A DNA stretch of 64,000 nucleotides from Acidobacteriota bacterium (GTDB lineage: Bacteria; Acidobacteriota; Thermoanaerobaculia; Gp7-AA8), in the NCBI GenBank assembly GCA_019244185.1, contig JAFATB010000023.1, forward strand, positions 32,001 to 96,000, written 5' to 3'. Within the stretch, counting starts at the first letter, position 1. Each line of letters begins with the position of its first letter. Of the stretch, positions 1 through 41,881 are shown in pieces. The translations under genes and the position numbers were made by a program. The notes beneath the pieces are model-generated. The model was not told the DNA's origin. It ran no database searches and saw only the letters and a program-made list of their open reading frames with translations.

Positions 1-3000
1 CGCGGTCGCCGTTGTTGACCAGCGCGGTGAAGAAGACCGTGCGCTCGATGCGCTCAAACGTGTAGCTCGTGTTCGACGGCAGCGCCGTGGCCGTGCGCGA
101 GCCGGCGTCGGAGCGGAGCCGCAGCGGCAGGCCTTTGCCCTTCGTGACGAAGTACGCGTGGGCGCCGCTCGACGGCGTGTCGAGCGCGGTGCCGTAGAAC
201 TCGATCGCGTCGTTCGCGTCGAACGAGCCGTCGCCGCCGTCGGAGACGAAGATCGGGCATTCGTTGCCGTCGACGTACAGGCGCACCGCGTCAGGCACGG
301 TGCCCGGATCGAAGCCGGCGGCCACGATCGCGCTCTTGGTGACGCGATACCACCCCTCGTGCGTGACGTAGAGCTTCGCGGCGGGCGCGCCGAGGATCGC
401 GTACTGCTGATTGACGCGGCGGGTGTCGAATACCTGCGTGATCGGCTGCTGCGCCGCGAAGCCGCGCGCGGAGACGAAGATGCCGCCGTTCTCGAGCGGC
501 GCGGCATTCGCGAGCGTCGGCGCGTCGACGGTCGCCATCGCGGCGGCGGTGAAGCCGCTGTGGACGACGGGCGTGATCGGGCCGTGCATCGTGTGCTCGC
601 CGTTGAGGTCGACGTCTTCGAGCCAGTACTGCACGAACGAGCCGGCGTCGACGTTGTCCTTCCACTGATAGGAGCGGCCCGACTCGAGTCTGCGCGAGGC
701 GGTGAAGAACGCGGAGCCGGCGATGACGTACGGGTTGATCTTCTCGCGCTCGCCGCCGCTGCGCTGGCGATAGAGGTTGAAGCCGAGATTGTCGGACTCG
801 AAGCTGGTCTTCCAGGAGACGACCACGTGGCCGTTGCCGTCCTGCTCCGCGTCGAGCGAGAGCACGCGCGCGAACGTCGGCGCGGGCACGTTCGAAACGA
901 ACGACGCGCTGTTGTTCGTCGTGTTCGTCTCGGACTCGTTGATCGCGACGGTGGCCGTGTTGGTGACCTGCGTCGTGTTGACGGTGATGGTGCCGGTGAT
1001 GGTGATGACCTGCGTTGCGTTCACGGCGAGCGACGCGTAGTTGCACGTCACGGTGCCGCTCGCGAACGTGCACGTCGGCGAGCCCGGCGAGACGTTGGTA
1101 AACGAGACGCCCGACGGGATCGGATCGCTGACGACGACGCCGGTGGCAATCGTCGGGCCGTTGTTCTTGGCGGTCAGCGTGTAGGTGATGGTCTGCCCGA
1201 AGAAGATCGGATCGGGGCTGCCGGTCTTCGTGATCTGCACGTCGGTCTTGTGGACCGTGGTGGTCGTGCTGGCGGTGTTGTTCGCCGTGTTCGTCTCGGG
1301 GTTCGTCGTCGCGGTCGTGACGCTCTGCGTGATCGTGGTCGGATCGGCGAGCGCGGTGGACGTCTTGACGACGAGCTGGAAGTTGCCGGTGGTCGCACCC
1401 GCGGCGAGCGCGGTGCCCGCGGCGATGGTGCAGGTGATCGTGCCGGTGCCGCCGACGGCCGGCGTGGTGCACGACCAGCCCGCGGGCGGCGTCATCGAGA
1501 CGAACGTCGTGCCCGGAGGCGTCGTCTGCGTGAGCGTGACGCCGTAGGCCGGGATGTTCGTCGAGTTGTTCGTGACGGATTCGGTGTAGGTGATGTTGCC
1601 GCCCGCGCCGACGGGATCGGGCGAGTCGGAGATGGCGACGGAGATGTCCGTGCAGCCGGACTTGATGCCGGTGATCTGATCGAAGTCGGCCGTCGTCACG
1701 ATGGTGCCGACCGCGCCCGGCTGCGCGCCGAACGTGTCGTTCGCATCGGTGGTGATGCCGGACGTGCCGCCGAGGACGCTCGAAGCGCCGTTCGGAGTGC
1801 CGTTGGTGGCGATGTAGCCGCCCGCACCGCCGCCGCCGGGGCCGTGACGCTCGCCGGGGTATCCGCCGTTCGCATGGCCGCGCCATGCGTCGCCGCCGTC
1901 GCCGCCGTCGGCGTGCATGGTGAGACCGTTGATGCCGCCGTTGTGCGAGAGCACGACGATCGAGCCGCCGGCGCCACCGCCGCCGCCGCCGTCATTGAGC
2001 GTGTCGTCGTAGGCGTCGGCGCCGTTCGCGTTGATGGTCGCGGTGCCGCTCAGGTTCGCGGCGCGGATGAGGACCATGCCGCCGCCGGCCGCGCCGGAGC
2101 CGCCGAGGTCGCCGGTTGCGTCGCTGTTGTTGCGCGCGCCGCCGCCGCCGCCGCCGCCGAGAACCGCGCGGCCCGGAGAGTCGAAGAACGGAGCGCCGCC
2201 GAAGCCGCCGCGCGCCTGATTGGACTGCCACGCGTTGCCGCCGCCGCCGCCGCGGCCCCAGTTGCCGCCGCCGCCGCCGCCGGAGTTCTGGTCGTTGACC
2301 GTACCGGTATCGGTGCCGCCGCCGCCCGCGTTCGCGGGAGCACCGCGGCCGTAGTCGCCATTGGGATAACCCTGCGGGCCGATGTCGAGCGTCGCGCCCG
2401 AATCGAACAGCAGCTCGGGCGAGCCTGCGATGCCTTCACCCTTGATGCCGTGCGTGTCGTCGGTGGCGATCGCGTTTCGATAGTCGTCCGGCTGCGCGGT
2501 GCCGTTGCCGTCCTGCTGGATGCCGGCCGCGCCGCGGAAGCCCTGGCCGTTCACGCTGACGGTGGCGCTGTTGAGCGTGAGCTGACCGGCGACGTCGATG
2601 GCGAGAATGCCGCCGGTGAAGCCCGTCGTGGTCGTGCCGCCCCACGGACGCGCGGTCAGCGCGGCGCCGAGCGTCGCGTTGAGATACTGCGGCACGCGCA
2701 CGACCTGGAAGCGCCGTTGTCCCTGCGTCGCGGTCGCGGCCGCGTTCGTGTACGCGTACACGAGACCGCCGGAGCCGTTGACGCCGGTGAAGGTGATCGT
2801 GCCGCCCGCCGCGCCGATCGCGGTCGCATTCGTCGCGACCACGTATTCGTAGCGGCCGGCATTGTTCGCGTTGGTGTAGCCGGCGCCGATGCCGGTCACG
2901 CTGCCGGCGACGCCCGCGCCGTTGCCGTAGCGGTCGTCGTTCGTGCTGTCGATCGCCGCGTCCTGCATCTGGATGATGAGCAGCAGGTCGCCGGCGGTGA

Positions 3001-4243
3001 TCGAGTTCGCGGCGCCGGTGCGCGTGCCGGCGGTGATCGAGGTCGCGCCCGCGGCGGCGCTGGCCGTGCCCGGCCAGTAGGAGTTCACGACACCCGTGAT
3101 CGGCGCGGCGGGCGTGCCGTCCTTGCCCGGCTGCGTGCCGCAGACCGTGGCCTGCACGAGCGAGTAGGAGCTCGCGCTGGCGGTGTTCGGCGTGCCGGGG
3201 TCGACGGTGGTCGTCGTCACGGTCCCGGTGTTCGCCGCGATCGCGCCGCCGGTGAGCGGTGCGACGACCTGAATCGAAATCGAGGCGGTGGCGCCGTTCG
3301 TGAGCGTGCCGACGGTGCAGGTGACGGTCGTCGTGCCGCTGCAGGTTCCCTGCGTCGTCGTCGAACTGACGAACGTCACCGTGCCGGGAAGCGTGTCGGT
3401 GACGGTGACGCCGTTCGCGGCCGACGGGCCGTTGTTGTAGACGTAGAAGGTGTAGGTGAGAATCCCGCCCGGTGCGACCGGATCGGGAAGCGCGCTTTCA
3501 TTGAGCTCGACGTCGGCCTGCGCGGGCCGCACGTTGACGGCGATGTCGGTCCAGCTGCGATTGGCCGACAGCGTCCAGCTCATCGTGGTCGTGCCGGCCG
3601 CGGCGGCGCGGCGGCTGCTGGCCGCCTGGACGTCGTTGTTCGACGTGCCGGCGTTGGAGATGTTGTAGTTCTGGGTTTGCGCGGCGTTGACGGTGAGCGT
3701 CACCGACTCGCGCGCGGAGACGAAGTCCACGATGGTGTCGTTCGTGGCGGAGGTCAGTGCGGTCGACGTCGCAGGACTCGTGGTGCCGGTGTTTGTCGAC
3801 ACGATCGTCGACGGCATCGTCTGATTCGCGCCGGAGTACGTGATCGCGCCGATCACCCCGCGGACGGTCTGGCCCGCGCCGACGCCGCCCATCGTCACAC
3901 TCACATTGTTCGTTCCCGTGTTCGGATTGAGCAGGTACCACACCTCGGTACGCGTATCGACGGCCGCGTCCGTGATCGCTTCGAGCAGCGTCAGCGTCTG
4001 CGCGCCGTACGAGACGCTCGTCACCGTCGCGCCGGTCGGCGTGTTGACGTTCATGTGCACGCCGACGAGCAGCAGGCGATTGTTCGCCGTAGCTGCCGGG
4101 ATCGTGTGCGCCATCGTGACGGTCGGCGCGCCGTTGGTGAAGTTCGCCGCCGCCGAGTTCTGCACGACGAGCGTGGCCTGCGCCATAGCGGACGCGGCAA
4201 CGAAAAACGAGACGATTGCAGCAGGGATCAACCGGCGCAGCAT
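1..4243 (-). CDS. Large secreted DUF11-repeat / C25 (gingipain-like) peptidase-family protein, 3' end beyond window
   Basis: Not in the ORF track because it has no stop in the window. AAGGAG RBS, then ATG at 4243 giving MLRRLIPAAIVSFFVAASAMAQ (signal peptide). Frame checked at several points. Three DUF11-type units (e.g. PDPVAPGGILTYTFYVYNNGPSAANGVTVTDTLP), a Gly-rich region, WKTSFESDNLGFNLYR, and KLYVTHEGWYRVT...IEFYG, typical of the region preceding C25 catalytic domains. The catalytic domain itself is not visible. Confidence 0.8.
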   Translation of the reverse strand, partial: MLRRLIPAAIVSFFVAASAMAQATLVVQNSAAANFTNGAPTVTMAHTIPAATANNRLLLVGVHMNVNTPTGATVTSVSYGAQTLTLLEAITDAAVDTRTEVWYLLNPNTGTNNVSVTMGGVGAGQTVRGVIGAITYSGANQTMPSTIVSTNTGTTSPATSTALTSATNDTIVDFVSARESVTLTVNAAQTQNYNISNAGTSNNDVQAASSRRAAAAGTTTMSWTLSANRSWTDIAVNVRPAQADVELNESALPDPVAPGGILTYTFYVYNNGPSAANGVTVTDTLPGTVTFVSSTTTQGTCSGTTTVTCTVGTLTNGATASISIQVVAPLTGGAIAANTGTVTTTTVDPGTPNTASASSYSLVQATVCGTQPGKDGTPAAPITGVVNSYWPGTASAAAGATSITAGTRTGAANSITAGDLLLIIQMQDAAIDSTNDDRYGNGAGVAGSVTGIGAGYTNANNAGRYEYVVATNATAIGAAGGTITFTGVNGSGGLVYAYTNAAATATQGQRRFQVVRVPQYLNATLGAALTARPWGGTTTTGFTGGILAIDVAGQLTLNSATVSVNGQGFRGAAGIQQDGNGTAQPDDYRNAIATDDTHGIKGEGIAGSPELLFDSGATLDIGPQGYPNGDYGRGAPANAGGGGTDTGTVNDQNSGGGGGGNWGRGGGGGNAWQSNQARGGFGGAPFFDSPGRAVLGGGGGGGARNNSDATGDLGGSGAAGGGMVLIRAANLSGTATINANGADAYDDTLNDGGGGGGAGGSIVVLSHNGGINGLTMHADGGDGGDAWRGHANGGYPGERHGPGGGGAGGYIATNGTPNGASSVLGGTSGITTDANDTFGAQPGAVGTIVTTADFDQITGIKSGCTDISVAISDSPDPVGAGGNITYTESVTNNSTNIPAYGVTLTQTTPPGTTFVSMTPPAGWSCTTPAVGGTGTITCTIAAGTALAAGATTGNFQLVVKTSTALADPTTITQSVTTATTNPETNTANNTASTTTTVHKTDVQITKTGSPDPIFFGQTITYTLTAKNNGPTIATGVVVSDPIPSGVSFTNVSPGSPTCTFASGTVTCNYASLAVNATQVITITGTITVNTTQVTNTATVAINESETNTTNNSASFVSNVPAPTFARVLSLDAEQDGNGHVVVSWKTSFESDNLGFNLYRQRSGGEREKINPYVIAGSAFFTASRRLESGRSYQWKDNVDAGSFVQYWLEDVDLNGEHTMHGPITPVVHSGFTAAAMATVDAPTLANAAPLENGGIFVSARGFAAQQPITQVFDTRRVNQQYAILGAPAAKLYVTHEGWYRVTKSAIVAAGFDPGTVPDAVRLYVDGNECPIFVSDGGDGSFDANDAIEFYGTALDTPSSGAHAYFVTKGKGLPLRLRSDAGSRTATALPSNTSYTFERIERTVFFTALVNNGDR

Positions 4244-4406: not shown

Positions 4407-5207
4407 TTAGAAGGCGATGCCGGGCATCAGCAACGGCTCGATGTCGCGTCCGAAGAACAACATGACGAGCGCCGCAAGTCCGAGAAAAACGCCGAAGGGC
4501 AATTCCGCCTTCATGCCCTTCGCGCTGCGCGCCGCGACGGTGATGCCGATGACCGCGCCGGAGACGGACGCGAGCAGTAGCACGGGAAACAAGGCCTGCC
4601 ATCCGAGGATCGCGCCGAGCATCGCCATCATCTTCACGTCGCCGAGTCCCATGCCTTCGATCTTCTGCACGAGCTTGTAGGCGAGCGCGATGGCGAGAAT
4701 GCCGCCCGCACCGATGAGCGCGCCGAGAATCGACTCGCGCAACGTCGAAGCGAGCGCGAGCTCCGGATGCAACGCGCCGAGATGCAAAGCGCCGATCGCC
4801 AGACCGATGGCGACGCCCGGAAGGTCGATCACGTCGGGGAGAATCTGAATGTCGAGGTCGATGTAGATGAGCGCGATGAGCATCGACACGACGGCCGCGA
4901 CGAGCAGAAACGCGGGCGAGAGTCCCGTGCGCTGAAAGATGGCGAGATAGAACAGCGCGTTAGCGAGCTCGACTAGCGGATAGCGCGCGCCGATCGGCTC
5001 ATGACACTCGCGGCAGCGTCCGCGGAGCCAGAGGTAGCTGACGATCGGGATGTTGTCGTACGGCCGGATCGGCGTCGCGCAATGCGGGCAGCGGCTCGGC
5101 GGAAAGACGATCGATTCCTCGCGCGGATAGCGATGGATGACGACGTTGAGGAAGCTGCCAAAGATCGCCCCAAGAGCGAACGCCACAACCGAAAAGAACA
5201 AACCCAT
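4407..5207 (-). CDS. pilD: Prepilin peptidase / N-methyltransferase (A24)
   Basis: GSFLNVVIHRYP, CPHC...CREC zinc motifs, GMGLGDVK, LPFGVFL. Confidence 0.95.
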   Translation of the reverse strand: MGLFFSVVAFALGAIFGSFLNVVIHRYPREESIVFPPSRCPHCATPIRPYDNIPIVSYLWLRGRCRECHEPIGARYPLVELANALFYLAIFQRTGLSPAFLLVAAVVSMLIALIYIDLDIQILPDVIDLPGVAIGLAIGALHLGALHPELALASTLRESILGALIGAGGILAIALAYKLVQKIEGMGLGDVKMMAMLGAILGWQALFPVLLLASVSGAVIGITVAARSAKGMKAELPFGVFLGLAALVMLFFGRDIEPLLMPGIAF

Positions 5208-5407: not shown

Positions 5408-5413
5408 GGCCGG

Positions 5414-5508
5414 CGGAGGCGTGTCGGAATCGAACCAACCTTTCGACGCTTCCGCGCCGAAACAACGGTTTTGAAGACCGCGGGAGCCACCAGACCCCAT
5501 TCGCCTCC
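5414..5508 (-). tRNA. selC: tRNA-Sec (UCA)
   Basis: GGAGGCGAATGGGGTCTGGTGGCTCCCGCGGTCTTCAAAACCG...GGTTCGATTCC...CGCCTCCG. UCA anticodon, long variable arm, extended D-stem, ~95 nt. Followed by CCG rather than CCA. Confidence 0.95.
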
Positions 5509-5582: not shown

Positions 5583-6516
5583 GTGGTGTTGGCGACGGTA
5601 GGTGCGGGGGTCGTGGCGTTTCTCGTGTTCGCGGCGGTGTTACGCCAGCCGGTGCTCTCCGCGCCGCGGTATGGAGGTGCGCGTGCGAGCGCGGAGGTGC
5701 TTCGTCAACACGTTGACTTTCTGGCGAAGAGCGTGTTGCCGCGGAGTGCGGCGCATCCGGAGAACCTCGATCGCGCGGCGGCGTACATCGCGGACGCGTT
5801 TCGACGCGCGGGTGCGGAGGTCGTGGAGCAACCGTTCCGCGCGCGCGGACGCGTGTCCCGCAACGTCATCGCGCGGTTCGGACCGCGCGATGCGCGGCAG
5901 CCGCTGCTCGTGGTCGGCGCGCACTACGACGCGTTCGGCGAGACGGGCGCGCTGCCCGGCGCCGACGACAACGCGAGCGGCACCGCGGGTCTCCTCGAGC
6001 TCGCCCGCATCCTCCGCGACTCCAACGTGCACGCGCCCGTGGAGCTCGTCGCCTTCACGACGGAAGAGCCGCCGTTCTTCGGCTCGGAGGAGATGGGAAG
6101 CGCGGTCCACGCCGCGTCGCTTGCGGGACGACCGGTGCGCGGCATGATCAGTCTGGAGATGATCGGCGTCTTCTCTGGCGAGCAGACGTGGCCATCGCCG
6201 CTCTTCGCGTGGCTCTACACCGATCGGAGCGACTTCATCGCCGTCGCCGGCGGCTGGTCGGATCGCGCGCTTGCGCGTCAGGTGAAGCGCGGCATCCGCG
6301 GCGTGGGCGGCGTCGACGTCTACTCGTTCAGCGGTGCGCGAGAACTGTCCGACGCTTCCGACCAGCGCAGCCACTGGGCGCGCGGCTGGACGGCGGTCAT
6401 CGTCACCGACACCGAGTACCTGCGCAATCCGCGCTACCACACGAACCGCGACACCGCGGAGACGCTCGACTACGCGTTGATGGCGCGCGTTGTCGACGGC
6501 GTCGCGAACGCGGTCA

Positions 6517-6536
<20 letters not shown>
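5583..6536 (+). CDS. M28 family metallopeptidase
   Basis: VGAHYD, GADDNASG, TTEEPP and SDQ motifs; N-terminal hydrophobic anchor. Confidence 0.9.
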
Positions 6537-10221: not shown

Positions 10222-10500
10222 ATGGATGAACAGGAACCGTTGCACCCGGCCATCCGCGGTCTGAAGACCGTCTGCCGCTGCAACAACATCAAATACCGCA
10301 CGATCGAGCGGGCCATCCGCGAGGGAGCGCACACGCTGACGCAGGTCGCGAACCGCACCACCGCCACGATGGGCGAGTGCGGCGGCTCCTGCACGCCGGA
10401 CGTTCAGGCCATGCTCGACGAGCTGGCCCCCGCGTATACGCAACTCCCGAAAGCCGCCCCGGCGGCAAATCCGGATGCATGGTGGGTACGGAAGAAATGA
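10222..10500 (+). CDS. BFD-like [2Fe-2S]-binding protein
   Basis: VCRCNNI...ATMGECGGSC. Start reassigned because the longer ORF overlaps the tRNA. Confidence 0.85.
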   Translation: MDEQEPLHPAIRGLKTVCRCNNIKYRTIERAIREGAHTLTQVANRTTATMGECGGSCTPDVQAMLDELAPAYTQLPKAAPAANPDAWWVRKK

Positions 10501-10841
10501 CGAAAACTCTCGAGGTCTACCTCAAGCCTTCCTGAACGAGCTGCCGCAAGGCGGTGGCCGACCTGGAAGGTCGGGGATACGAACTGGTGAAGCACAACCT
10601 CGCGAACGACCGCCCGAGCCGCGAGCTCCTCGCGCGCCTCATCGACGAGCACGGACTCGACTCCGTGATGAACGCGCGCAGCCCCGCCTTCAAAGCCCGC
10701 AACCTCGGCGAGCGGAAGCTGGACAAGGCGGAAGCGATCGCGCTGATGCTCGAGGATCCGAACCTCATCCGGAGGCCGCTCGTCCTCGGCAAGCGCCGCG
10801 TCGTCTTCGGTCACAAGCCGGAGGAGTACGACGGCCTGTGA
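10497..10841 (+). CDS. ArsC/Spx-family selenoprotein (UxxC), Sec TGA at 10533-10535
   Basis: ATG overlaps the upstream stop (ATGA). MTKTLEVYLKPS-U-TSCRKA is in frame with the downstream ...MLEDPNLIRRPLV... and matches the family PSCTSCRKA motif. Confidence 0.9.
10558..10574 (+). promoter_or_regulatory. Candidate SECIS hairpin
   Basis: CCGACCT-GGA-AGGTCGG. The loop starts with G 29 nt after the UGA. A second hairpin lies at 10540-10558. Confidence 0.6.
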
Positions 10842-11371: not shown

Positions 11372-11420
11372 CCTCCACGGAGCGCGGCTCCTGTCCGTTT
11401 TGCGACAATCCCCCCGTTTC

Positions 11421-13766
11421 ATGCCGCTTCTCCTTCATTCACTCGCCGCGCTCGCGCTCGTCGGTCTCGCGCATCGCTTCGTGCGCCCGCTCTCGCGCGG
11501 CGCGGCGCTCGTCCTCTTCGCGCTGCCGTTCGTCATCGCCGGCTACGCGCTTCTGACCTCGCGCGTCCTCGCGCCGGTCGACCTCGCGTATCAGACCGTG
11601 CCGCTCAACTGGATGAAGGAGACGTACGGCGTCAGCGACGTGAGCACCGGACTGCACAGCGACGTGCTGTCGCAGTTCATCCCGTGGCGCGCGGCCGTGC
11701 GCGACTCGCTCGCACGCGGCGAGTGGGGCCTCTGGAACCGCTACGCCTTCGCGGGCGACATCCTGCTCGCGGGCGAGCAGCCGGCGGTCTTCTCGCCGAT
11801 CACGCTCCTCGCGTGTCTGCTGCCCGCGGCGCTGAGCTTCACCTTCACCGGCGCGCTGACGCTCTTCATCGCCGCGCTCTGCGCGTTCCTCCTCGCGCGC
11901 GAACTCGATTGCGGCGAGCCGGCGGCGCTCGTCGCCGCGGCGTCGTGGTCGCTCGCGACCTCGCTCGTCGTCTTCGTACTCGTGCCGCTCGGCGCGACGT
12001 GGGCGTGGGCGCCGCTGCTGTTCGTGAGCGTCCAGCGTCTCGTGCGCGCGCCGCGCATCGCCTCCGCCGCGCTGCTCGCGTTCACGTTCACTGCATTGCT
12101 CGCGGCCGCGCATCTCGAATCCGTGTTGCTCATCGTCGCATTGGGCGTCGCGTACGCGCTGCTCGAGCTCGCGCGGCGGCCGTCGGTACGCGCGGTCGCG
12201 CTCGCGGCGGGCGCGGGCGTCGTCGCGCTGCTCGTTTCGGCCGTGCATCTCCTGCCGTTCTTCGAGGCGCTGCCGTGGACGATGGAGTACGCGACGCGCG
12301 ACCTGTTCCGCGACTCGGCGCGCGGCGTGCCGCTGCCCGACGCCGCGCTGCGGATGCTGATGACGTTCTTCCCGTACCTCAACGGACGGCCGCCGGTGAC
12401 GTCGTTCATGAACGGCGCGATCGGCAGCATTGCCACCGCGCTCGCGCTGTACGCGCTGTGGCGCGTGCGCTCGCGCGCGACGTGGTTCTTCGGCGCGACG
12501 TTCCTCGCCTGTCTCGTCATCGCGTCGGAATGGCGTCCCGTCGCGACGCTGCTCGGGCGTGTGCCGCTCTTCGACATCGCCATCTTCGACCGCATGGCCT
12601 TTGGCGCCGCGCTATCGCTGGCCGTGCTCGCCGCGCTCGGCGCCGAAGCGCTCGCGCGGCGCGGCGGCGATCGCGCGGCGGGCGCGACGCTCGCGGCGTG
12701 GTTCGTCGTCGTCGCCGCCGGCAACTACGCGTTGCTGCACGCGGCGTCCGTTCCGCGCGGTCCGGTGAAATTCGGCGAGCACGTTGTCGCCGCAGAGCTC
12801 GTGCCGCTCGCGTTCGCAGCGGCGCTGTTGTTTCGCAAACGTGCCGCGCTGCCCGCGCTGCTCGCGCTCATCATCGTGCAGCGCTGGCTCGCGGTCAGCG
12901 ACGCGCAGAAGTCGTTTCCGCGTCGCGCTGCCTATCCGCCGATCCCGATCCTCGAACCGCTGCGCGCGATCCGCACGCCGTTCCGCATCGTCGGCCACGG
13001 CAACGCGCTCATCCCCGGCACGGCCACGCTGTACGGACTCGAAGACGCGCGCGGCTACTCGGCGATGACGCTGCTGCGCTACCGCGAAACGTACGGCCTG
13101 TGGTGCGTCGAACAGCCGGTGTGGTTCAACCGCGTCGACGATCTCTCGCGGCCGTTCCTCTCATTCCTCAACGTCCGCTACGCCATCACGTGGGACCGCG
13201 CGGTGCCGCCGCCGGGATGGACGGAAGTGGCGCGGCAGCGCGGCGCGATCCTGCTCGAGAACCACAACGCGCTCGATCGCGCCTTCGTGCCGCGCGGCGT
13301 GCACGTCGGCGCGAGCACGAACGTCACGCTGATGGAGATGGCGCTCGCCACCGACTTTGCCGACCGCGCGTGGATCGAGGCGAACGTTCCCGCGCCGTAC
13401 GACTCCGCGAACGGGCCGGGGCGGCTCACGATCGCTAACGCGCGCCTCGGCTACGCGATCGACGCGGACATGCAGAACGACGGCTGGATCGTGACGTCGA
13501 TCGCGGCGTGGCCCGGCTGGCGCGCGTACGTCGACGGCCGCCGCGTCGACACGAACATCGCCAATCATGCGTTCGTCTCGGTGCGCGTCCCGCGCGGACA
13601 TCACCGCGTCGCGCTGCGCTACTTTCCGGACGGCTTCGCGGTGGGAAGGACGATCAGCGCGGTGACGCTCGCGCTGATCGTCCTCGCGTCGCTACTGTTT
13701 CATCGCCGCAAGCCGCTTCTCGAGGCTGGCGATGCGGCCGTCGCTGCGCTGCCCCTCGGGGAGTGA
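11421..13766 (+). CDS. YfhO-family membrane protein (GT-C glycosyltransferase-like)
   Basis: QFIPWR...GEWGLWNRYAFAG, many TM helices, FLNVRY, C-terminal WPGWRAYVDG...VRVPRGHHRVALRY. Confidence 0.88.
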   Translation: MPLLLHSLAALALVGLAHRFVRPLSRGAALVLFALPFVIAGYALLTSRVLAPVDLAYQTVPLNWMKETYGVSDVSTGLHSDVLSQFIPWRAAVRDSLARGEWGLWNRYAFAGDILLAGEQPAVFSPITLLACLLPAALSFTFTGALTLFIAALCAFLLARELDCGEPAALVAAASWSLATSLVVFVLVPLGATWAWAPLLFVSVQRLVRAPRIASAALLAFTFTALLAAAHLESVLLIVALGVAYALLELARRPSVRAVALAAGAGVVALLVSAVHLLPFFEALPWTMEYATRDLFRDSARGVPLPDAALRMLMTFFPYLNGRPPVTSFMNGAIGSIATALALYALWRVRSRATWFFGATFLACLVIASEWRPVATLLGRVPLFDIAIFDRMAFGAALSLAVLAALGAEALARRGGDRAAGATLAAWFVVVAAGNYALLHAASVPRGPVKFGEHVVAAELVPLAFAAALLFRKRAALPALLALIIVQRWLAVSDAQKSFPRRAAYPPIPILEPLRAIRTPFRIVGHGNALIPGTATLYGLEDARGYSAMTLLRYRETYGLWCVEQPVWFNRVDDLSRPFLSFLNVRYAITWDRAVPPPGWTEVARQRGAILLENHNALDRAFVPRGVHVGASTNVTLMEMALATDFADRAWIEANVPAPYDSANGPGRLTIANARLGYAIDADMQNDGWIVTSIAAWPGWRAYVDGRRVDTNIANHAFVSVRVPRGHHRVALRYFPDGFAVGRTISAVTLALIVLASLLFHRRKPLLEAGDAAVAALPLGE

Positions 13767-15005
13767 CTTCGCGTAGTCGATGGCCTGCTGCATCGTCGCG
13801 CGCGCGGCGGCGGTGTCGCCTTTCGCCGTGTAGATGTCGGCGCGCGCGGTGAGCACGACCAGCTTGCGCGGACCGTAGACGCGCGCGAGCGCGCGGTCGG
13901 ACGCGGCCAGCGCCTTGTCGTACTCCTTCATCGCGTTGTAGGCGAGGGCCAGGCGCGCCGGCGGGTTGTAGTCGTCCGGGAAATCGCGCTGCGACTGCTC
14001 GAGCATCGGGATCGCCTTTTCCGGCGTGCCGAGGTCGAGGTAGGCGGCGAGGCGGTGCGAGTCGTAGACCGCGCGCTGTTCGGCGGTCTTCGCCGCGGCG
14101 GCGGACTTCTCGAGGAACGCCGCCCATTCGCCGCGCAGCTTCTTCGCGCCCGCTTCGTCTTTCGCGTCGTCGCGCGCATCGATGAGCGACATGTACAGAC
14201 CGGAGCGGTCGTCGCCGGAGAGCGTCAGCGTGTGATCGTCGAAGACCTCGCGCGTGTCCTTCTCCAGCGTCGCGATCCACTGCGCGCGCTTCGGATTCTT
14301 CTCGTCGACTTCGATCGCGCACGAGAGCCCGCTCGCCGCGACGCCGGCCGCGGACGACGTGCCCTTCACGCGCGGATACAGATCGAGCGCGCGCGTCGTG
14401 CAGCGTTCCGCGTCGCGGGCCATGCTCAGCGAGAAGAGCAGCGACTCCGCGGTGCGGCCGTAGCCGTTCCATCCCTTCGGCGCATTGCCGAGGGCCTGGT
14501 CGAAGAGCTTCGCGGCCTCGGCGTCCTTCCCTGCGGAGGCGAGCGCGTTCGCGCGGGCGAGAAGCTGATCGGCGGACGAGAGCGACTTCGCGCGATACGT
14601 CTTCTCCGCGTCGTCGAGCATCTTGCGCAACTGCGGCACGGTCGCGCCGCCGACGTAACGCATCGTCACCGCGTCACGCTTCGCGTCGAGCACGAGCAGC
14701 GTCGGCAGCGCCGGGATCGGATACTTTTTGAGGAACGACGCGCTCTTCGCGTCTTCCGTGTTGAGGCTGAGCCAGACGAACCGTCCGGCGTACCGTTCGA
14801 GCGACGCGTCCGTGAGCACGTACGCGCGCATCGAGCGGCAGGTGTGTCACCACGGTGCCCACGCCTCGACGAAGATCGGCAGATTCTTCGTCTTCGCGCG
14901 GGACACCGCCGTGGCGTAGTCGTTCTCGATGAAAGGGAGAACTTCTTTCGCATGCGCGGCGACGCTCGCCAGGAGCACCGCCGCGGCCATGAGCATGTTT
15001 CGCAT
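13692..15005 (-). CDS. Exported thioredoxin-like selenoprotein (UxxC) with C-terminal TPR repeats, Sec TGA at 14849-14847
   Basis: MRNMLMAAAVLLASVAAHA signal peptide, then IENDYATAVSRAKTKNLPIFVEAWAPW-U-HTCRSM in frame with the track ORF 13692..14831. cis-Pro motif ALPTLLVLD; helical TPR-like C-terminus. Confidence 0.9.
14805..14826 (-). promoter_or_regulatory. Candidate SECIS hairpin
   Basis: CGCGT-A-CGT-GCTC-ACG-G-ACGCG. The loop starts with G 29 nt after the UGA. Confidence 0.55.
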
Positions 15006-15028: not shown

Positions 15029-17122
15029 TCACATCGGACCGGGGGTGACCCAGCGACGTAACCATTCGTCCACCTCGCGGTAAAACACGCGCGAGTTTTC
15101 GGCGTTGAGAATCCAGTGGTTCTCCTCGGGCCAGACCAGCAGTCGCGACGGCACGCGCAGCCGCTGCAGCAGCGACCACGCTTCCAGCGTGTTGTTCAGC
15201 GGCACGCGGAAGTCGTGCTCGCCGACCGACAGCAGGATCGGCGTCTTGAACTGCGCGGCGAAACGCGCGGGACTCTGCGTGCGCCACACCTCGCCCTGCT
15301 CCCACACCGGACCGTTGTTCATCAGCTCGCGGCCGTAGATCGTGTCCGACGTCGCCCACTGCGTTTCGAGATTGATGAGCCCCGCGTGCGCGACGAGCGC
15401 CTTGAAGCGATCGCCCGACCACGCTTCGAGCGCGTACGTGAGATGCCCGCCGTAGCTCGCGCCGCCGGCGACCTGCCGCGTCGCGTCGATGAACGGATAG
15501 CGTTTGATCGCCTCGTCCGCCGCTTCCATCAGCTCGTCCGCGGGACCGCGCAGCGGATCGCCCTGAATGAGCTGGCCGAACTGCTCGCCGAAGCCGGTTG
15601 AGCCGCTGTAGTTCGTCATCAGCATCACGTACCCCGGCTTCGCGAGCAGGTGATAGTTCCAGCGCAGCGAGATCGCGTCGCGCCACATGTTCGCGGCGCC
15701 GCCGTGGATGAGCACGAACAGCGGGTACTTCTTCGACGCATCGAAGTTCGCCGGCAGGACGATCATGTTGTGGATGCGCCGGCCGCGCTTCGACGTGAAC
15801 CAGAAGTGCTGCGGCGGCTGCCAGTCGATCGTCTTCGCCTGCTCGACGTTGAACGACGTGAGGTTCGTGTGCTTCTTCGCGTTCAGGTCGACGCGCACGA
15901 TCTCGATCGGATTGACGGACGAGCCCCACTGCGCGACGACGACCGGCGCGCGTTCGGCGACGCGTAAGGACGTGTAGACGCCGCGCTGCGGATCGACCGC
16001 GAGCTGCGCGTCGCCGCCGGCCGCGGGCACCGAGTAGATCTTCACCAGCCCCGCGTCTTCGGCCGTGAAGTAGATCGTGCGGCCGTCGCTGGTGACGCCG
16101 AAGTCGTCGACGGAGCGGTCGGTTTTCGCGACGACGCGCTCGTTCTTCATCGACGGCCAGTCGAACGCAACGAGGCGGTTGAGGTTGTAGACCTTGCCGT
16201 TGTTCGGATTGAACGTCGCGAAAAGCGTCTTTCCGTCGGGACTGAAGTCCGGGCTGCCGTAGCCGCCGTTCGCGGTCGTGAGCTTCTCCGGCTCGCCGCC
16301 GTTCGCCGAGACTCGATAGAGATCGAACGAGACTTCCGCGTATGCGCCGGTGTTGCGCGTGCTGGTCGCGGCGAAGACGAGCCACTGTCCGTCGGGCGAC
16401 CACGCCGCGTCGAGCGACTCGCGTCCCTCGCCGCCGCCCGTGCCGCCGAAGCCGGCGCTCGCGACGAGCTTCGTGCCGGCGAGCACGTCCTTCGCCGGCG
16501 CGCCGGGCGTGAGCGACTGCACGAAGACGTGCGCCTGTTTCTCGTCGAGCCAGCGATCCCACGCGCGCACGGGGAAGCTGTCGTAGACGCGCACTTTGTC
16601 CTTACGGTCTTTCTCCGCTTTCGCTGCCTTCTTGTTGGCGTCGTCGTCGAGCGCGCCGGGATAGACGGTGCTGACGAACGAGATCGCGTTGCCGTCGGGG
16701 CGGAAGTGCGGGCGGCTCGCGCCGGTGGAGACATTCGTCACGCGCAACGCCTCGCCGCCGCCGGCGAGATCGAGGACGTAGATCTGTGCGGCGTCGTCCG
16801 TGTCGCGTTTCGCGGCGAAGGCGATGCGGCGGCTGTCGGACGACCACGTCACGTCGCTCTCGCCGGCCTTCGTGTTCGTGAGGCGGCGCGGCTGCGCGCT
16901 GCCGTCGGCGGGGACGAGCCACAGATCGCTGAGCTGATCTTTCTCGTCGTACGCGGGCTCCGTGAGCGAGAAGACGACCCACTTGCCGTCGGGGCTCAGC
17001 GCCGGCGCGCCGATGCGTTTCATCAGCCACATCGTCTCGTGCGTGAGCGGCACGCCCGCGGCGAACGCGGCGGCGGAGAAGAGAAGGAGGAGTGCGAGAG
17101 GGAGAAGCCGGACTCGTCTCAT
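15029..17122 (-). CDS. S9 family peptidase (prolyl oligopeptidase/acylaminoacyl peptidase)
   Basis: Signal peptide, SPDG beta-propeller repeats, IHGG, GASYGG, DFRVP, EENHW. Confidence 0.93.
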   Translation of the reverse strand: MRRVRLLPLALLLLFSAAAFAAGVPLTHETMWLMKRIGAPALSPDGKWVVFSLTEPAYDEKDQLSDLWLVPADGSAQPRRLTNTKAGESDVTWSSDSRRIAFAAKRDTDDAAQIYVLDLAGGGEALRVTNVSTGASRPHFRPDGNAISFVSTVYPGALDDDANKKAAKAEKDRKDKVRVYDSFPVRAWDRWLDEKQAHVFVQSLTPGAPAKDVLAGTKLVASAGFGGTGGGEGRESLDAAWSPDGQWLVFAATSTRNTGAYAEVSFDLYRVSANGGEPEKLTTANGGYGSPDFSPDGKTLFATFNPNNGKVYNLNRLVAFDWPSMKNERVVAKTDRSVDDFGVTSDGRTIYFTAEDAGLVKIYSVPAAGGDAQLAVDPQRGVYTSLRVAERAPVVVAQWGSSVNPIEIVRVDLNAKKHTNLTSFNVEQAKTIDWQPPQHFWFTSKRGRRIHNMIVLPANFDASKKYPLFVLIHGGAANMWRDAISLRWNYHLLAKPGYVMLMTNYSGSTGFGEQFGQLIQGDPLRGPADELMEAADEAIKRYPFIDATRQVAGGASYGGHLTYALEAWSGDRFKALVAHAGLINLETQWATSDTIYGRELMNNGPVWEQGEVWRTQSPARFAAQFKTPILLSVGEHDFRVPLNNTLEAWSLLQRLRVPSRLLVWPEENHWILNAENSRVFYREVDEWLRRWVTPGPM

Positions 17123-17208
17123 GCAGTTCATTCGGGAACTTGACAACGGTGCGTTCGGCGGCAACGATTCCTGGCCTCTGCCGGCATTGCGACGTTCGAG
17201 GAGGAACG

Positions 17209-19390: not shown

Positions 19391-19795
19391 CGCGGAGAAG
19401 CGGATCACGACGAGCGCGATCGCCGCGCCGCAGAGATCGAGCAGGACGTCCTGCGGACGTCCGGTGCGCATGCGCGTCATGCTCTGATGGATCTCGTCGA
19501 TCGACGCGACGACCAGCACGATCGCCAGCGCGATGCCGGCCCAGCGCATCGTGAAGCCGCGGCGCTCCGCGCGCGCGGCGCGGAAGCCGAGCGCGCCGAG
19601 GAAACCGTATGCGGTGAGGTGCGTGGCCTTGCGGATGAGGATGTTCACGAGCTCGATGGAGCGGTCGGAAAGGAACTGTCCGATGAACTCATGCAGCCAG
19701 CCGTGCGTGTGCGACGACGAGAGCCGATCGTTGCCGGCGGAGACGAGGCACGCGGCCCACACGATGACCGGCAGCCAGTAGCGGAGGAAGCGCAT
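19373..19795 (-). CDS. VanZ family membrane protein
   Basis: IRKATHLTAYGFL, DEIHQS...RTG...DVLLD. Confidence 0.9.
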   Translation of the reverse strand: MRFLRYWLPVIVWAACLVSAGNDRLSSSHTHGWLHEFIGQFLSDRSIELVNILIRKATHLTAYGFLGALGFRAARAERRGFTMRWAGIALAIVLVVASIDEIHQSMTRMRTGRPQDVLLDLCGAAIALVVIRFSASRREA

Positions 19796-19820
19796 GCGGC
19801 GCGTACAATACCGCCTCCGC

Positions 19821-21440
19821 ATGGAAGCCCCGACGATCCGTCTCGTCCTTCAACAGCCGAGCCTCGCACCGACGAACCTCGAGCTCCGCGGACCGGTGAT
19901 CACCCTCGGCCGCGCGAGCGACTGCACGGTGCCGATCCGCGACCGCTACCTCTCGCGCCATCACGCGGAGATCGCGTTCGAGTCGGGCGCGTGGCTCGTG
20001 CGCGACCGCAACAGCGCGAACGGCACGCTGCTCAACAACGTGAAAGTCGACGGCGGCTCGCCGCTGCGCCCCGGCGACCGCATCGTCCTCGGCGATACGC
20101 AGATCGTCTTCGATCCGCCGGTCGAGCCGTCGCTCTCGCAGATCATCCCGCTCGACACCGACTCGCAGGCGAAGAACCTCGCGCTGCCGGCGGAGAAGGT
20201 CGTCGCCGGCGACACCGCGCGCGCCGGCGTGCTCGCGTCGCTCGCGCTGGAGTTCATCGAAGACCGTCCGATGGACGACCTCTTCGAGTTCATCCTCAGC
20301 CGCGTCGTCGAGCTGCTCCATCCGTCGCGCGCGGCGCTCGCGCTCCTCGGTGCCGGCGGCTCGTTCGAGCACGTGCATCTGCGCCGCCGCGACGAGAGCG
20401 ACTCCGCCGATCTCTACATCTCGCGCACGCTCCTCGGCGAAGTCATCGAAGGGCGCAACGTCATCTCGTTCGTCGACACGTCCGTCGACGAGAAGCTCGC
20501 CCGCGCGCAGTCGATCATCGCGCAGGACATCCGCTCGGCCGTCTGCGCGCCGCTGCTCGTCGGCGACGCGGTCCTCGGCGTGCTCTATCTCGATTTCCTT
20601 TCCGCGCATGGCTCGGTGACGCAGGACGACGTGCGTCTCATCGCGCAGATCGCGCGCTTCGCCGCGGCCAAGCTCGAGACGACGCGGCTGCGCGAGGAAG
20701 CGATCGCGAAGGCGAAGCTCGACGAGGAGCTGCGCACCGCGTACACGATCCAGAGCCGCCTGCTGCCGGTCGAGCTGCCGAGCGTCGACGGCTACGACCT
20801 CGCGGGCTCGAACCGCCCGTGCCGCACCGTGAGCGGCGACTTCTACGACTTCATCGTGCGGCCCGACGGCCGCATGTACTTCATCATCGCGGACGTGAGC
20901 GGCAAGGGCATCACCGCGGCGCTGGTGATGGCCAGCCTCGCGACGGCGTTCGACATCTTCGTCAGCCGCGATCCCGATCCCGCGGAGCTCGTGTCGCAGA
21001 TCAACAAGACGCTCGCGCCGAAGACCGCGCCGACGAAGTTCGTGACGCTGGTCGCCGGCGTCCTCGATCCGCGCAGTGGGACGATCGACTTCACGAACGC
21101 CGGCCACGTGCCGCCGCTGCTGATCACGGCGTCTGGCGTCGAGCGGCTCGCGTCGACGGACATGATCGTCGGCCTCTTCGCGCACGCGCGCTACCGCACG
21201 CAGCGCGTCACGCTCGCGCCGCACGACTCGCTCGTGCTCTTCACGGACGGCGTGACGGAAGCGGAGAACGCGGACGAGGAACAGCTCGGCCTCGACTCGG
21301 TGGCGACGGCCGTCGCGACGTTGCACGGCACGCCGGCGACGCGCATCCTCGACGCCATCGACGCGCACGTGCAGGCGTTCGCCGGACACACCGCGGCGAA
21401 CGACGACGTGACGCTGCTCGCCGTCACGCGGAACGTCTGA
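19821..21440 (+). CDS. FHA-GAF-SpoIIE (PP2C) protein phosphatase
   Basis: FHA: LGR..SRHHA..SANGT. GAF: SAVCAPL. PP2C: VSGDFYD, ADVSGKG, FTDG, DDVT. Confidence 0.93.
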   Translation: MEAPTIRLVLQQPSLAPTNLELRGPVITLGRASDCTVPIRDRYLSRHHAEIAFESGAWLVRDRNSANGTLLNNVKVDGGSPLRPGDRIVLGDTQIVFDPPVEPSLSQIIPLDTDSQAKNLALPAEKVVAGDTARAGVLASLALEFIEDRPMDDLFEFILSRVVELLHPSRAALALLGAGGSFEHVHLRRRDESDSADLYISRTLLGEVIEGRNVISFVDTSVDEKLARAQSIIAQDIRSAVCAPLLVGDAVLGVLYLDFLSAHGSVTQDDVRLIAQIARFAAAKLETTRLREEAIAKAKLDEELRTAYTIQSRLLPVELPSVDGYDLAGSNRPCRTVSGDFYDFIVRPDGRMYFIIADVSGKGITAALVMASLATAFDIFVSRDPDPAELVSQINKTLAPKTAPTKFVTLVAGVLDPRSGTIDFTNAGHVPPLLITASGVERLASTDMIVGLFAHARYRTQRVTLAPHDSLVLFTDGVTEAENADEEQLGLDSVATAVATLHGTPATRILDAIDAHVQAFAGHTAANDDVTLLAVTRNV

Positions 21441-36560: not shown

Positions 36561-36678
36561 CTACGCGCAGCTGATCGCCATGTCCGTCGCGATCAGCCGC
36601 GCGCAGCGCCGGCTGCCTCGCGGCGAGCGACCGCGGCGGCGACGCCGTCCGCGCGTCGCGTACACTGGAAGCATCGGC

Positions 36679-41243: not shown

Positions 41244-41881
41244 TCGACGACGCGGCCGCGGTCGAGCAGCACGAGCTCTTCGCAGATTGCCGCGACTTCC
41301 TCGCGCTGATGCGTGACGTACAGCATCGGGATGGGGAACGCGTCGCGCACGCGCACGAGGTACTCGAGCACGCGGTCGCGCAGCACCACATCGACCCCCG
41401 CCAGCGGCTCGTCGAGGAGCAGCACCTCGGGACGGCTGAGCAGCGCGCGCGCGAGCGCCACGCGTTTGCGCTCACCGCCGGAGAGATGCGCGACGCCGCG
41501 GCCGAGGAGCGGCTCGAGCTCGAGGACGTCGACGACGTGCGCGAAGGCGAAGACGTCATCGTCGCCGTCGCGCGTCGCGCCGTACGACACGTTCTGCCGC
41601 ACGGAGAGATGCGGAAAGAGCGCGTCGTCCTGCGGCACGTAGCCCACGCGGCGCGCGCGCGGCGGCACGAACACGCGTTGCGCGGCGTCGAACACGACGC
41701 GTTCGTTGAGCTCGATGCGTCCCGTCGCCGGCGTGCGCAGGCCGGCGATCGTTTCGAGGAGCGAGGTCTTGCCCGCGCCCGACGGGCCGTACAAAGCGGT
41801 GATCCGCCGCGTCGTCGCGAACGAGACGTCGAGCGTGAACGGCGCGAGCGGCAGCACGACGTCACGCAACACGATGCTCAC
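41222..41881 (-). CDS. modC: Molybdate ABC ATP-binding protein (short, no TOBE domain)
   Basis: GPSGAGKT, RRVGYVPQD, LSGGERKR, LLDEP; GTGA overlap with the upstream gene. Confidence 0.88.
   Translation of the reverse strand: MSIVLRDVVLPLAPFTLDVSFATTRRITALYGPSGAGKTSLLETIAGLRTPATGRIELNERVVFDAAQRVFVPPRARRVGYVPQDDALFPHLSVRQNVSYGATRDGDDDVFAFAHVVDVLELEPLLGRGVAHLSGGERKRVALARALLSRPEVLLLDEPLAGVDVVLRDRVLEYLVRVRDAFPIPMLYVTHQREEVAAICEELVLLDRGRVVDQSSGIV

Follow-up and report, generated by a model that had tools for sequence, protein, structure and literature searches.

A predicted exported thioredoxin-TPR selenoprotein of Thermoanaerobaculia with a conserved two-hairpin RNA structure after its UGA codon

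Main finding

A 64,000-nucleotide (nt) stretch of DNA from an Acidobacteriota bacterium of the Thermoanaerobaculia (assembly GCA_019244185.1, contig JAFATB010000023.1, positions 32,001 to 96,000, hereafter the window, whose own numbering is used throughout) carries on its minus strand a gene predicted to encode an exported selenoprotein, in which a thioredoxin-fold domain with selenocysteine (Sec) in a UxxC motif is followed by a long arm of tetratricopeptide-like repeats (TPR). Four independent lines, namely protein homologues, related DNA, selection and Sec machinery, indicate that this is a genuine selenoprotein gene, with UGA codon 53 predicted to be decoded as Sec. The gene would add to the known selenoproteins an exported family of new architecture, which is abundant in soil Thermoanaerobaculia (Acidobacteriota) and present in a few other phyla. 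The features that carry this finding are the following.

13692..15005, minus strand: complete selenoprotein gene by TGA=U translation; Cys homologues align end to end and TGA is kept in 72 of 74 loci
14847..14849, minus strand: UGA codon 53, predicted selenocysteine, in the context WAPW-U-HTC and aligned with the Cys of WAPWCHTC in homologues
14838..14849, minus strand: redox motif U53-H-T-C56 (UxxC) at the N-terminal end of helix 54-63, from translation and structural model
5412..5508, minus strand: tRNA-Sec gene (selC), anticodon UCA, by ARAGORN and Rfam (RF01852, 71.1 bits against a gathering score of 47)

Read with TGA=U, minus-strand positions 15005..13692 form a frame of 437 codons that contains a single in-frame TGA and is followed by a TAA-type stop. 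Under genetic code table 11, the same frame is split into a 52-codon open reading frame (ORF; 14847..15005) and a 379-codon ORF (13692..14831) that starts at Met59. The two redox positions, U/C53 and C56, are invariant in the family alignment (72 of 72 rows). The tRNA-Sec gene lies about 9 kb from the selenoprotein gene, between genes for a prepilin peptidase (4407-5207) and an M28 peptidase (5583-6536), and an Rfam search of the whole window at the gathering threshold returned only two tRNAs. The initial annotation, which was made from the letters of the window without database searches, had proposed the 437-codon read-through product, and this proposal is borne out by the in-frame conservation of the part upstream of the TGA, by homologues with Cys in place of Sec, by a TGA-specific structure resembling a Sec insertion sequence (SECIS), and by the tRNA-Sec gene of the window.

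A use of TGA as a sense codon throughout the genome was considered and rejected, since the neighbouring S9 peptidase gene and the YfhO-family ORF both terminate at TGA. The base after the UGA (window 14846) is always C, giving UGA-CAC, and His54 is encoded by CAC in 70 of 70 sequences; UGA-C is a weak termination context in E. coli.

Homologues, Sec/Cys exchange and selection

A word-indexed protein search returned 3094 relatives at E <= 0.001 among 8000 scored candidates, and the best 120 of these were examined. Eleven are full length (432-466 amino acids, aa) and carry WAPWCHTC, with Cys at the TGA position, and 109 are 365-386 aa long. As many as 107 of these 109 start exactly at the Met equivalent to residue 59, as would be expected of a gene caller confronted with an in-frame TGA; one of them (P0016) is identical to the downstream part of a locus that carries the TGA (L002). 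The public names of the relatives are 'tetratricopeptide repeat protein' or 'thiol reductase thioredoxin'. The mis-annotation is systematic: the 109 entries called from Met59 lose both the signal peptide and the active site and are left with the name of a "TPR repeat protein".

At the DNA level, a scan of species-representative genomes recovered 75 loci, 74 of which cover the motif, the other (L032) beginning after it at a contig edge. Most of the source genomes are titled Thermoanaerobaculia, while 14 are titled only Acidobacteriota or Acidobacteria, two 'Eisenbacteria', and two have no classification. Of the covering loci, 72 have TGA as the motif codon and two (L013 and L015) have TGC, and the residues before this codon (LPFIENDY...AKAKNVPIFVEAWAPW) are kept in frame in all 74. 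In the 72 rows with a complete gene, the ratio of nonsynonymous to synonymous substitution rates (dN/dS) is lowest before the TGA, at 0.28 over codons 20-52, and rises to 0.33 over codons 54-135 and 0.38 in the TPR region, so that the segment preceding the TGA is under purifying selection and hence translated. The initial annotation had named the conservation of this segment and a survey of homologues for U/C exchange among the checks on its reading, and both come out in its favor: the segment is conserved at the dN/dS just given, and the TGA and TGC codons of the 74 loci, together with the WAPWCHTC of full-length homologues, document the exchange.

An exhaustive search of representatives clustered at 50% identity gave 5485 proteins at E <= 0.001, including 473 at E <= 1e-30. 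Among the best 150 of the 5485, which were inspected, 85 span the full length and show the pattern W..WC..C, in most cases as WAPWCH[T/S/A]C, and about 42 by hand count begin exactly at query residue 59 and are presumed to be Sec forms. A language-model look-up with the Cys homologue P0012 pointed to related clusters in Myxococcota, Pseudomonadota, Acidobacteriota, Krumholzibacteriota and Planctomycetota, which bear only 'thioredoxin family' or 'TPR' protein names.

In a tree of the part after the motif (FastTree, 164 rows; quick and unrooted), Cys forms are repeatedly nested among confirmed TGA forms of Thermoanaerobaculia, as with P0007 beside L007, P0010 beside L023, and L013 together with L047 and L073. 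This topology needs 17 Sec/Cys changes when Met59-start entries are counted as Sec forms, and neither Sec nor Cys is called as the ancestral state because the tree is quick and unrooted. The many switches among close relatives supply natural comparisons in which the benefit of Sec to a periplasmic oxidoreductase can be studied.

Structured RNA downstream of the UGA codon

The region after the UGA aligns without gaps over 99 nt in 68 distinct sequences (the window and 67 loci) and contains two consecutive hairpins.

14791..14840, minus strand: hairpin A, an irregular stem-loop of 50 nt that starts 6 nt after the UGA, from minimum free energy (MFE) folds of 64 distinct sequences
14771..14789, minus strand: hairpin B, GCCGGACG-GUU-CGUCUGGC, with 8 base pairs (bp), from RNAalifold; probable SelB-binding core

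Per-sequence MFE folds give the same order in nearly all cases, namely the UGA, 6 nt, hairpin A, 0-1 nt, and hairpin B. Hairpin A consists of a 10-bp lower stem, (U)GCCGCUCGA/UCGAGCGG(U)A, an internal loop of 3-4 nt on the 5' side, a covarying upper stem of 5-7 bp, and a small apical hairpin. In the proposed structure, 90% of the alignment cells are standard pairs, compared with 30-45% in controls whose partners are shifted by 1-3 columns. The proportion of paired cells reaches 96% in the lower stem of hairpin A and 99.6% in hairpin B, and is 74.7% in the upper stem of hairpin A in one fixed register. Changes on both sides of a pair occur in 45 cells, a number reached by none of 500 shuffles. 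A search of Rfam at E <= 1 over positions 14650-14950 gave no match.

Since the region after the UGA is coding, tests based on synonymous diversity and on synonymous recoding were chosen; their counts are not independent trials, as the sequences are related to each other. Synonymous diversity, taken as codon heterozygosity among sequences with the majority amino acid, has its gene-wide minimum at codons 73-79, which correspond to hairpin B (0.121, against a mean of 0.404), and at four- and six-fold sites it amounts to 0.267 in codons 54-79 and 0.473 elsewhere (Mann-Whitney p 5e-4). In hairpin B, Ala73 (GCC, 69/69), Arg75 (CGG, 55/55) and Val77 (GTC, 70/70) each use a single codon, and Gly74 is encoded by GGA or GGG and never by GGC. 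When the 81 nt after the UGA were compared with 200 synonymous recodings drawn from the codon usage of the family, 59 of 62 distinct Sec forms proved more stable at the 5% level, with a median z of -3.3, compared with z values of -0.46 and -0.04 for the two Cys forms. Hairpin A alone is stabler than its recodings in 57 of the 62, and hairpin B is disrupted in both Cys forms.

Further detail comes from the closing pair of hairpin B, which changes from G-C to A-U in 13 of 70 Sec forms (CGG TTC to CAG TTT, which exchanges Arg for Gln and adds a silent substitution); an A·C intermediate is found in two sequences and the opposite mismatch in none. The most distant TGA forms (L064-L067, with about 50% protein identity) have a hairpin B of identical sequence, and their hairpin A stems differ with compensating changes.

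Domain architecture, fold and export

The protein is divided into three parts.

14949..15005, minus strand: signal peptide, codons 1-19, MRNMLMAAAVLLASVAAHA, judged by eye, with predicted cleavage after AHA (|KE)
14601..14939, minus strand: thioredoxin-fold domain (Thioredoxin_7 class), residues about 23-135, from Pfam PF13899, 2kuc_A and the model
13695..14588, minus strand: TPR-like all-helical domain, residues about 140-437, about 14 helices, from Pfam TPR families, DSSP on the model and Foldseek

In the N-terminus (MRNMLMAAAVLLASVAAHA|KE), charged residues, a hydrophobic stretch and an A-x-A site are arranged as in a signal peptide of the Sec export pathway. A crude rule, requiring K or R among the first 8 residues, at least 10 uncharged residues in a row and a small-x-small site, is passed by 67 of 72 family N-termini, so that the signal peptide with an AHA site noted in the initial annotation is upheld by eye and by this rule. 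Among the 85 full-length Cys representatives described above, 42 have a lipobox-like motif near the N-terminus. Export is thus predicted to be a family-wide trait.

Pfam assigns residues 27-131 to Thioredoxin_7 (PF13899, 37.2 bits against a cut-off of 27) and Thioredoxin (PF00085, 30.1 against 23.5). PF13098 scores 25.5 bits, short of its cut-off of 27, and precomputed Pfam lists this family for full-length Cys relatives. TPR families cover residues 147-413, with TPR_12 at 39.5 bits (cut-off 30.1) and TPR_14, TPR_8, TPR_2 and TPR_19 also above their cut-offs. An AlphaFold2 model built from 15 sequences is confident (predicted local distance difference test, pLDDT, 91; predicted template modelling score, pTM, 0.86). 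In the model, residues 1-18 are disordered (pLDDT < 50), residues 25-118 form a beta-alpha core of thioredoxin type, U53 lies at the junction of strand 44-49 and helix 54-63, a cis-Pro-type motif ALPT (99-102) precedes strand 102-107, and about 14 helices follow over residues 123-434. The domain order of the initial annotation, a thioredoxin fold with U53 followed by TPR-like helices, agrees with both Pfam and the model, and the structural comparison that it had suggested returned generic TPR superhelices as the top Foldseek matches of the whole model. At the sequence level, the closest solved relative among the best 60 of 136 matches is 2kuc_A, a Bacteroides 'putative disulphide-isomerase' (E 4e-11); ordinary thioredoxins and the gamma domains of DsbD come next, with E values of about 1e-8 to 1e-6. 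Two further cysteines, C202 (14400-14402) and C229 (14319-14321), are kept in 69 and 67 of 72 rows, respectively, and are lost together in L064, L065 and L067, a pattern that fits a structural disulfide of an exported protein.

Comparison with known families

Thioredoxin-fold selenoproteins with UxxC are the commonest bacterial kind, and the chemistry proposed here is not new. Table 1 of a 2026 catalogue of 119 prokaryotic selenoprotein families (PMC13188914) contains no TPR entry and no Thioredoxin_7 domain with UxxC. In NCBIfam release 20.0, no model reaches its cut-off, the best scores being 33.4 against 330 for DsbD, 34.1 against 96.8 for thioredoxin, and 24.7 against 805 for the selenoprotein TsoB. 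In full-text literature, no paper was found that pairs a selenoprotein with PF13899 or Thermoanaerobaculia with selenocysteine, although supplements of primary surveys might list the family as a low-confidence candidate, and nothing relevant was found on selenocysteine in connection with tetratricopeptide, thioredoxin, periplasmic proteins or selenoproteomes. The family therefore appears to be uncatalogued, and the impression recorded in the initial annotation that its architecture falls outside the characterized selenoprotein families holds against NCBIfam and against the families named in that table.

Several known groups share individual features with the protein. The UxxC thioredoxin-fold families given in Table 1 of PMC13188914, namely thioredoxin (PF00085), thiol:disulfide interchange (PF13098, an entry also given in a 2022 review, PMC9312934), DsbA-like, DsbG-like and TlpA-like proteins, likewise have Sec in place of the N-terminal Cys of CxxC and Cys homologues, but to judge from their descriptions in that table they are set apart by the absence of a TPR domain and of a Thioredoxin_7 domain combined with UxxC. 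The Trx7/PDZ selenoprotein of the same table (NF041199) resembles the present family in the fusion of a Thioredoxin_7-type domain to a module that binds peptides or proteins, but it is described there as having CxxU, with Sec as the resolving residue, and a PDZ domain, whereas here the motif is UxxC and Pfam reports no PDZ; NF041199 itself gave no match at E <= 0.01 in NCBIfam. Reductases of the DsbD gamma and DsbH types are also periplasmic and give weak matches to the thioredoxin domain (NF001419 at 33.4 bits; DsbD chains at E about 3e-6), and one Cys cluster is named 'DsbH family'. However, NF001419 remains far below its cut-off of 330, the membrane domain of these reductases is absent here, and the TPR arm is absent there.

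The order of an N-terminal thioredoxin-fold domain and a C-terminal TPR domain is shared with CnoX/YbbN. CnoX is cytoplasmic and about 280 aa long, whereas the selenoprotein carries a signal peptide and an active-site Sec, its thioredoxin domain is of the Thioredoxin_7 type, and its TPR arm has about double the length. It may thus represent a periplasmic, selenium-dependent counterpart of the CnoX chaperedoxin; we know of no periplasmic counterpart of CnoX, a statement for which no search was made. CnoX is described as joining a redox function to holdase chaperone activity (PMC10998233, PMC6282202, PMC8129009) and as working with GroEL (PMC13451151), and the motif reported for the E. coli protein is SQHC rather than CxxC (PMC10998233).

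Gene neighborhood

Two genes adjoin the selenoprotein gene directly.

15029..17131, minus strand: S9 serine peptidase with a PD40 propeller and Peptidase_S9 domain, Dpp5-like; start uncertain (17131 or 17122)
11400..13766, plus strand: YfhO-family ORF, convergent, overlapping the selenoprotein gene tail to tail by 75 nt (13692-13766)

The peptidase is recognized by Pfam (PF00326, 146.9 bits) and matches NCBIfam Dpp5 at 370 bits, below the cut-off of 900; its N-terminus resembles a signal peptide, and its gene ends 23 nt before the selenoprotein gene on the same strand. The position directly 3' of a secreted S9 peptidase and the convergence on a YfhO gene, both of which had been noted in the initial annotation, are confirmed by this gap and by the 75-nt overlap. 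In 46 of 74 loci an S9 homologue likewise precedes the gene immediately and in the same orientation, 66 loci having at least 2400 nt of upstream DNA, and the estimated gaps are mostly between -13 and about 150 nt, so the two genes are probably co-transcribed. Downstream, a YfhO homologue is found in 26 loci and an ArsC-related gene in 32.

In 24 loci with enough upstream DNA no S9 match was found, and the nearest upstream ORFs of 16 of them were run against Pfam; the eight left out comprise six in which the nearest ORF is on the other strand and two same-strand ORFs of 462 aa (L051 and L055). Amidohydro_1 proteins of about 460 aa are encoded by eleven of the 16 tested ORFs, all eleven in the orientation of the selenoprotein gene, and replace S9 in one subclade of Thermoanaerobaculia (L035, L038, L039, L040, L044, L050, L053, L057, L058, L061 and L070). 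What recurs upstream is thus an exported hydrolase, whose identity varies between loci. Cysteine is absent from the mature S9 protein of the window, and the enzyme is therefore not a thiol or redox substrate. A complex prediction for the mature S9 protein (residues 25-700, the alignment's first row) with the TPR arm (residues 135-437) gave a score of 0.00 and a mark of 0.32 and weighs neither way.

Proposed function, recoding signal and alternative explanations

With its signal peptide, thioredoxin fold with UxxC and TPR arm, the protein is likely to act in the periplasm as a selenol/thiol oxidoreductase whose arm holds substrates, its chemistry being deduced from sequence. The proposal of the initial annotation, a periplasmic selenol oxidoreductase with a protein-binding module, likewise stays a deduction from fold and motif. 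The steps proposed here follow the established chemistry of CxxC/UxxC thioredoxin-fold enzymes. The 437-residue precursor would be exported by its signal peptide, placing the selenol of U53 in the position of the attacking cysteine of CxxC. The selenolate would then attack a disulfide or oxidized cysteine of a bound peptide or polypeptide to give a mixed selenenylsulfide, which C56 would resolve, and the resulting Se-S bond would be recycled by a periplasmic electron pathway, none having been found in the window. The TPR superhelix of about 300 residues would most likely hold unfolded polypeptides or peptide substrates, as in CnoX. Because the gene usually follows that of an exported hydrolase, the substrates are probably envelope or imported peptides or polypeptides, and the selenoprotein may share a compartment and a pathway with the upstream exopeptidase or amidohydrolase, where it might open disulfide-linked peptides for degradation or guard envelope proteins from over-oxidation. 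A role in peptide processing together with the upstream hydrolase, which is suggested by architecture and context, is a plausible proposal but has somewhat less than an even chance of being correct.

For the RNA, the consensus bacterial SECIS model of Zhang and Gladyshev, as set out in PMC13188914, comprises an apical loop of 3-9 nt with a G in its first two positions (mostly N1-G-[G/U]-N-N2, with N1 and N2 paired), a stem of 4-16 bp, a UGA-to-loop distance of 16-37 nt and an MFE of at most -7.5 kcal/mol. Hairpin B agrees with this model in its loop (G-GUU-C, which is 3 nt, or 5 nt with the closing pair), in its 8-bp stem, in its energy of about -13 kcal/mol and in lying inside the coding region, and GUU is found in 66 of 68 sequences. 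It is probably the SelB-binding core. Where it departs from the consensus is in position, as the conserved 50-nt hairpin A occupies the interval between the UGA and hairpin B. Hairpin A may serve as a structural spacer that brings hairpin B into the range of the ribosome: once it is folded, the path from the UGA to the loop of hairpin B through the junction would be about 6 + 1 + 8 = 15 nt, close to the canonical minimum. In work by Su, Li and Gladyshev from 2005, Sec was reportedly inserted in E. coli from a distant SECIS, located in the 3'-UTR of a construct, that was brought near the UGA, and the present family would, if the spacer interpretation is correct, be a natural case of 'coding from a distance' inside a bacterial reading frame. 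Hairpin B breaks the spacing rule of bacterial SECIS search tools; under the same interpretation, spacing-limited searches and gene callers miss the family because the SelB-binding hairpin lies so far from the UGA, a second model would be needed, and more genes with long-range SECIS elements may be hidden. The full combination, in which a new long-range SECIS class with hairpin A as a covarying spacer serves a periplasmic Se-dependent chaperedoxin that would hold disulfide-linked or oxidized peptides or polypeptides on its TPR arm and reduce them for degradation by the co-encoded exopeptidase or amidohydrolase, and that would be widespread in soil Thermoanaerobaculia, is put forward tentatively and is, taken whole, rather doubtful.

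A number of observations count against the preferred explanation of the gene, its product and its recoding signal. The UGA and the loop of hairpin B are 65 nt apart in 66 of 68 sequences (64 nt in the remaining two), compared with 16-37 nt in the consensus, and it is the apical loop of hairpin A, at 25-31 nt, that falls inside that range. The covariation of G80-C84 to A80-U84 in hairpin B comprises 3-5 independent events (sign test, median p 0.5), a number too small for the test to reach significance. Dinucleotide shuffling of the 81 nt taken from the window gave no significant result (z -0.38), a test that is uninformative because the region is GC-rich and coding. From the alignment of 68 sequences, RNAalifold recovered hairpin B together with a weak invariant 5' helix in the vicinity of the UGA and no hairpin A, which it misses because the register of the upper stem of hairpin A shifts between subclades. 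The Cys-form control consists of only two DNA sequences. No selA, selB or selD was present among the scanned genes of the window, and none lies beside tRNA-Sec. Close kinship with YbbN is not indicated either: of the Foldseek matches listed, just two are thioredoxin-TPR entries, E. coli YbbN 3qou (E 2.8e-5; TM scores 0.21/0.31) and Salmonella 3qdn, no CnoX chain is among the best 60 of the 136 sequence matches, and the likeness is architectural only. A fixed partnership with the upstream gene is not established, because that gene varies by subclade and is absent in some loci. Finally, selenium incorporation, redox activity, export and binding are all functional assignments drawn from sequence.

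Two alternatives concern the recoding itself. The public annotation could be right, the gene encoding a plain TPR protein from Met59, with TGA as a true stop and the 52-codon ORF as a small gene or decayed remnant. Met59 is conserved, and 109 of the closest 120 database entries are called in this way, but the 52 upstream codons are in frame in all 74 covering loci with the low dN/dS given above, they encode the signal peptide, the first thioredoxin strand and helix, and half of the CxxC motif, and Cys forms read straight through them. The structured RNA after the TGA occurs only in TGA forms, tRNA-Sec is present, and a protein starting at Met59 would lose its export signal and have a broken fold, so that this explanation is extremely improbable. 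A more serious alternative accepts the selenoprotein and takes hairpin A alone as its SECIS, hairpin B being kept for some other purpose, for instance ribosome pausing, mRNA stability or as the site of a regulatory protein. The position of the apical loop of hairpin A within the consensus distance and the greater stability of hairpin A alone relative to its recodings in 57 of 62 Sec forms speak for it, and bacterial SECIS elements outside the consensus loop rule are acknowledged in the account of PMC13188914. However, the apical loop of hairpin A varies in sequence (ACAC, UCAC, UUCACC and others) and has a G at its start in only 4 of 68 sequences, the GCUC of the window included, whereas hairpin B is nucleotide-invariant at four-fold sites, bears a consensus G-[G/U] loop on its 8-bp stem, and is broken in both Cys forms. 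This alternative is possible, though unlikely, and hairpin B is preferred as the probable SelB-binding core.

Two further alternatives concern function. In one, the protein would resemble DsbA or DsbC in acting as an oxidant or isomerase that makes or shuffles disulfides in exported proteins, rather than as a reductase or redox-protective holdase. His-containing dipeptides mark oxidizing DsbA (CPHC) and PDI (CGHC), and the periplasmic location, the His in the dipeptide of the UxxC motif, and the name of the solved relative 2kuc_A would all be in keeping with such a role. Against it stand the sequence grouping of the Thioredoxin_7 class with DsbD gamma and thioredoxins, the automatic naming of one related Cys cluster as a DsbH-type reductase, and the lack of a DsbB/VKOR-like partner among the scanned genes of the window, none of which is decisive, and this role is judged to be distinctly unlikely. 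In the other, the protein is a dedicated assembly or escort factor that binds the upstream-encoded hydrolase through its TPR arm. TPR domains commonly bind protein partners, and the operon-like place after an exported hydrolase is conserved (S9 in 46 of 74 loci; amidohydrolase in 11 of the 16 others tested), but the redox center would have no role on a mature S9 protein that lacks cysteine, the upstream enzyme family differs in another subclade, and some loci have neither enzyme, which makes this explanation improbable. An oxidoreductase with a substrate-holding arm thus remains the preferred reading of the protein.

A second UGA-containing gene and other features of the window

A second predicted selenoprotein gene, with a conserved in-frame UGA, lies about 4 kb from the first, at window positions 10497-10841 on the plus strand, and counts with tRNA-Sec among the signs of Sec decoding. 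It is related to Spx/ArsC (TIGR01617, 80.6 bits against a cut-off of 75.05) and comprises 114 residues, with the UGA at 10533-10535 and U at codon 13 in the motif KPS-U-TSC; what precedes the UGA is missing from the table-11 ORF. In the window and in 29 syntenic loci (including L021), TGA stands at the motif codon; L015 has Cys there, and L013 and L069 are left without assignment. About 30 nt after the UGA, there is a conserved hairpin, GACCU-GGA-AGGUC, whose loop obeys the same SECIS rule. NF041106, the model of the catalogued 'ArsC family (seleno)protein', gives only 20.3 against a cut-off of 85. This gene was found through a partial Pfam match and not by a scan for further in-frame TGA genes based on G+C content at third codon positions (GC3), whose 17 candidates were mostly frame artefacts or adjacent genes and were set aside.

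In L015, both selenoprotein genes of the neighborhood carry Cys (motif codon at 867; ArsC-related gene about 1.8 kb downstream), which suggests a genome-wide loss or absence of Sec use.

Other genes of the window include an ORF of more than 1414 aa at 1-4243 on the minus strand, cut by the window edge, which has three DUF11 repeats and probably encodes a surface or adhesin-type protein; an ORF at 41878-43287 on the minus strand in which an SBP_bac_11 periplasmic solute-binding domain is fused to a BPD_transp_1 ABC permease, two functions that are usually encoded by separate genes; and a Ser/Thr protein kinase fused to PD40 propeller repeats at 36580-39282 on the plus strand. An FHA-GAF-SpoIIE (PP2C) phosphatase gene at 19794-21440 on the plus strand is syntenic with the selenoprotein locus in 29 loci.

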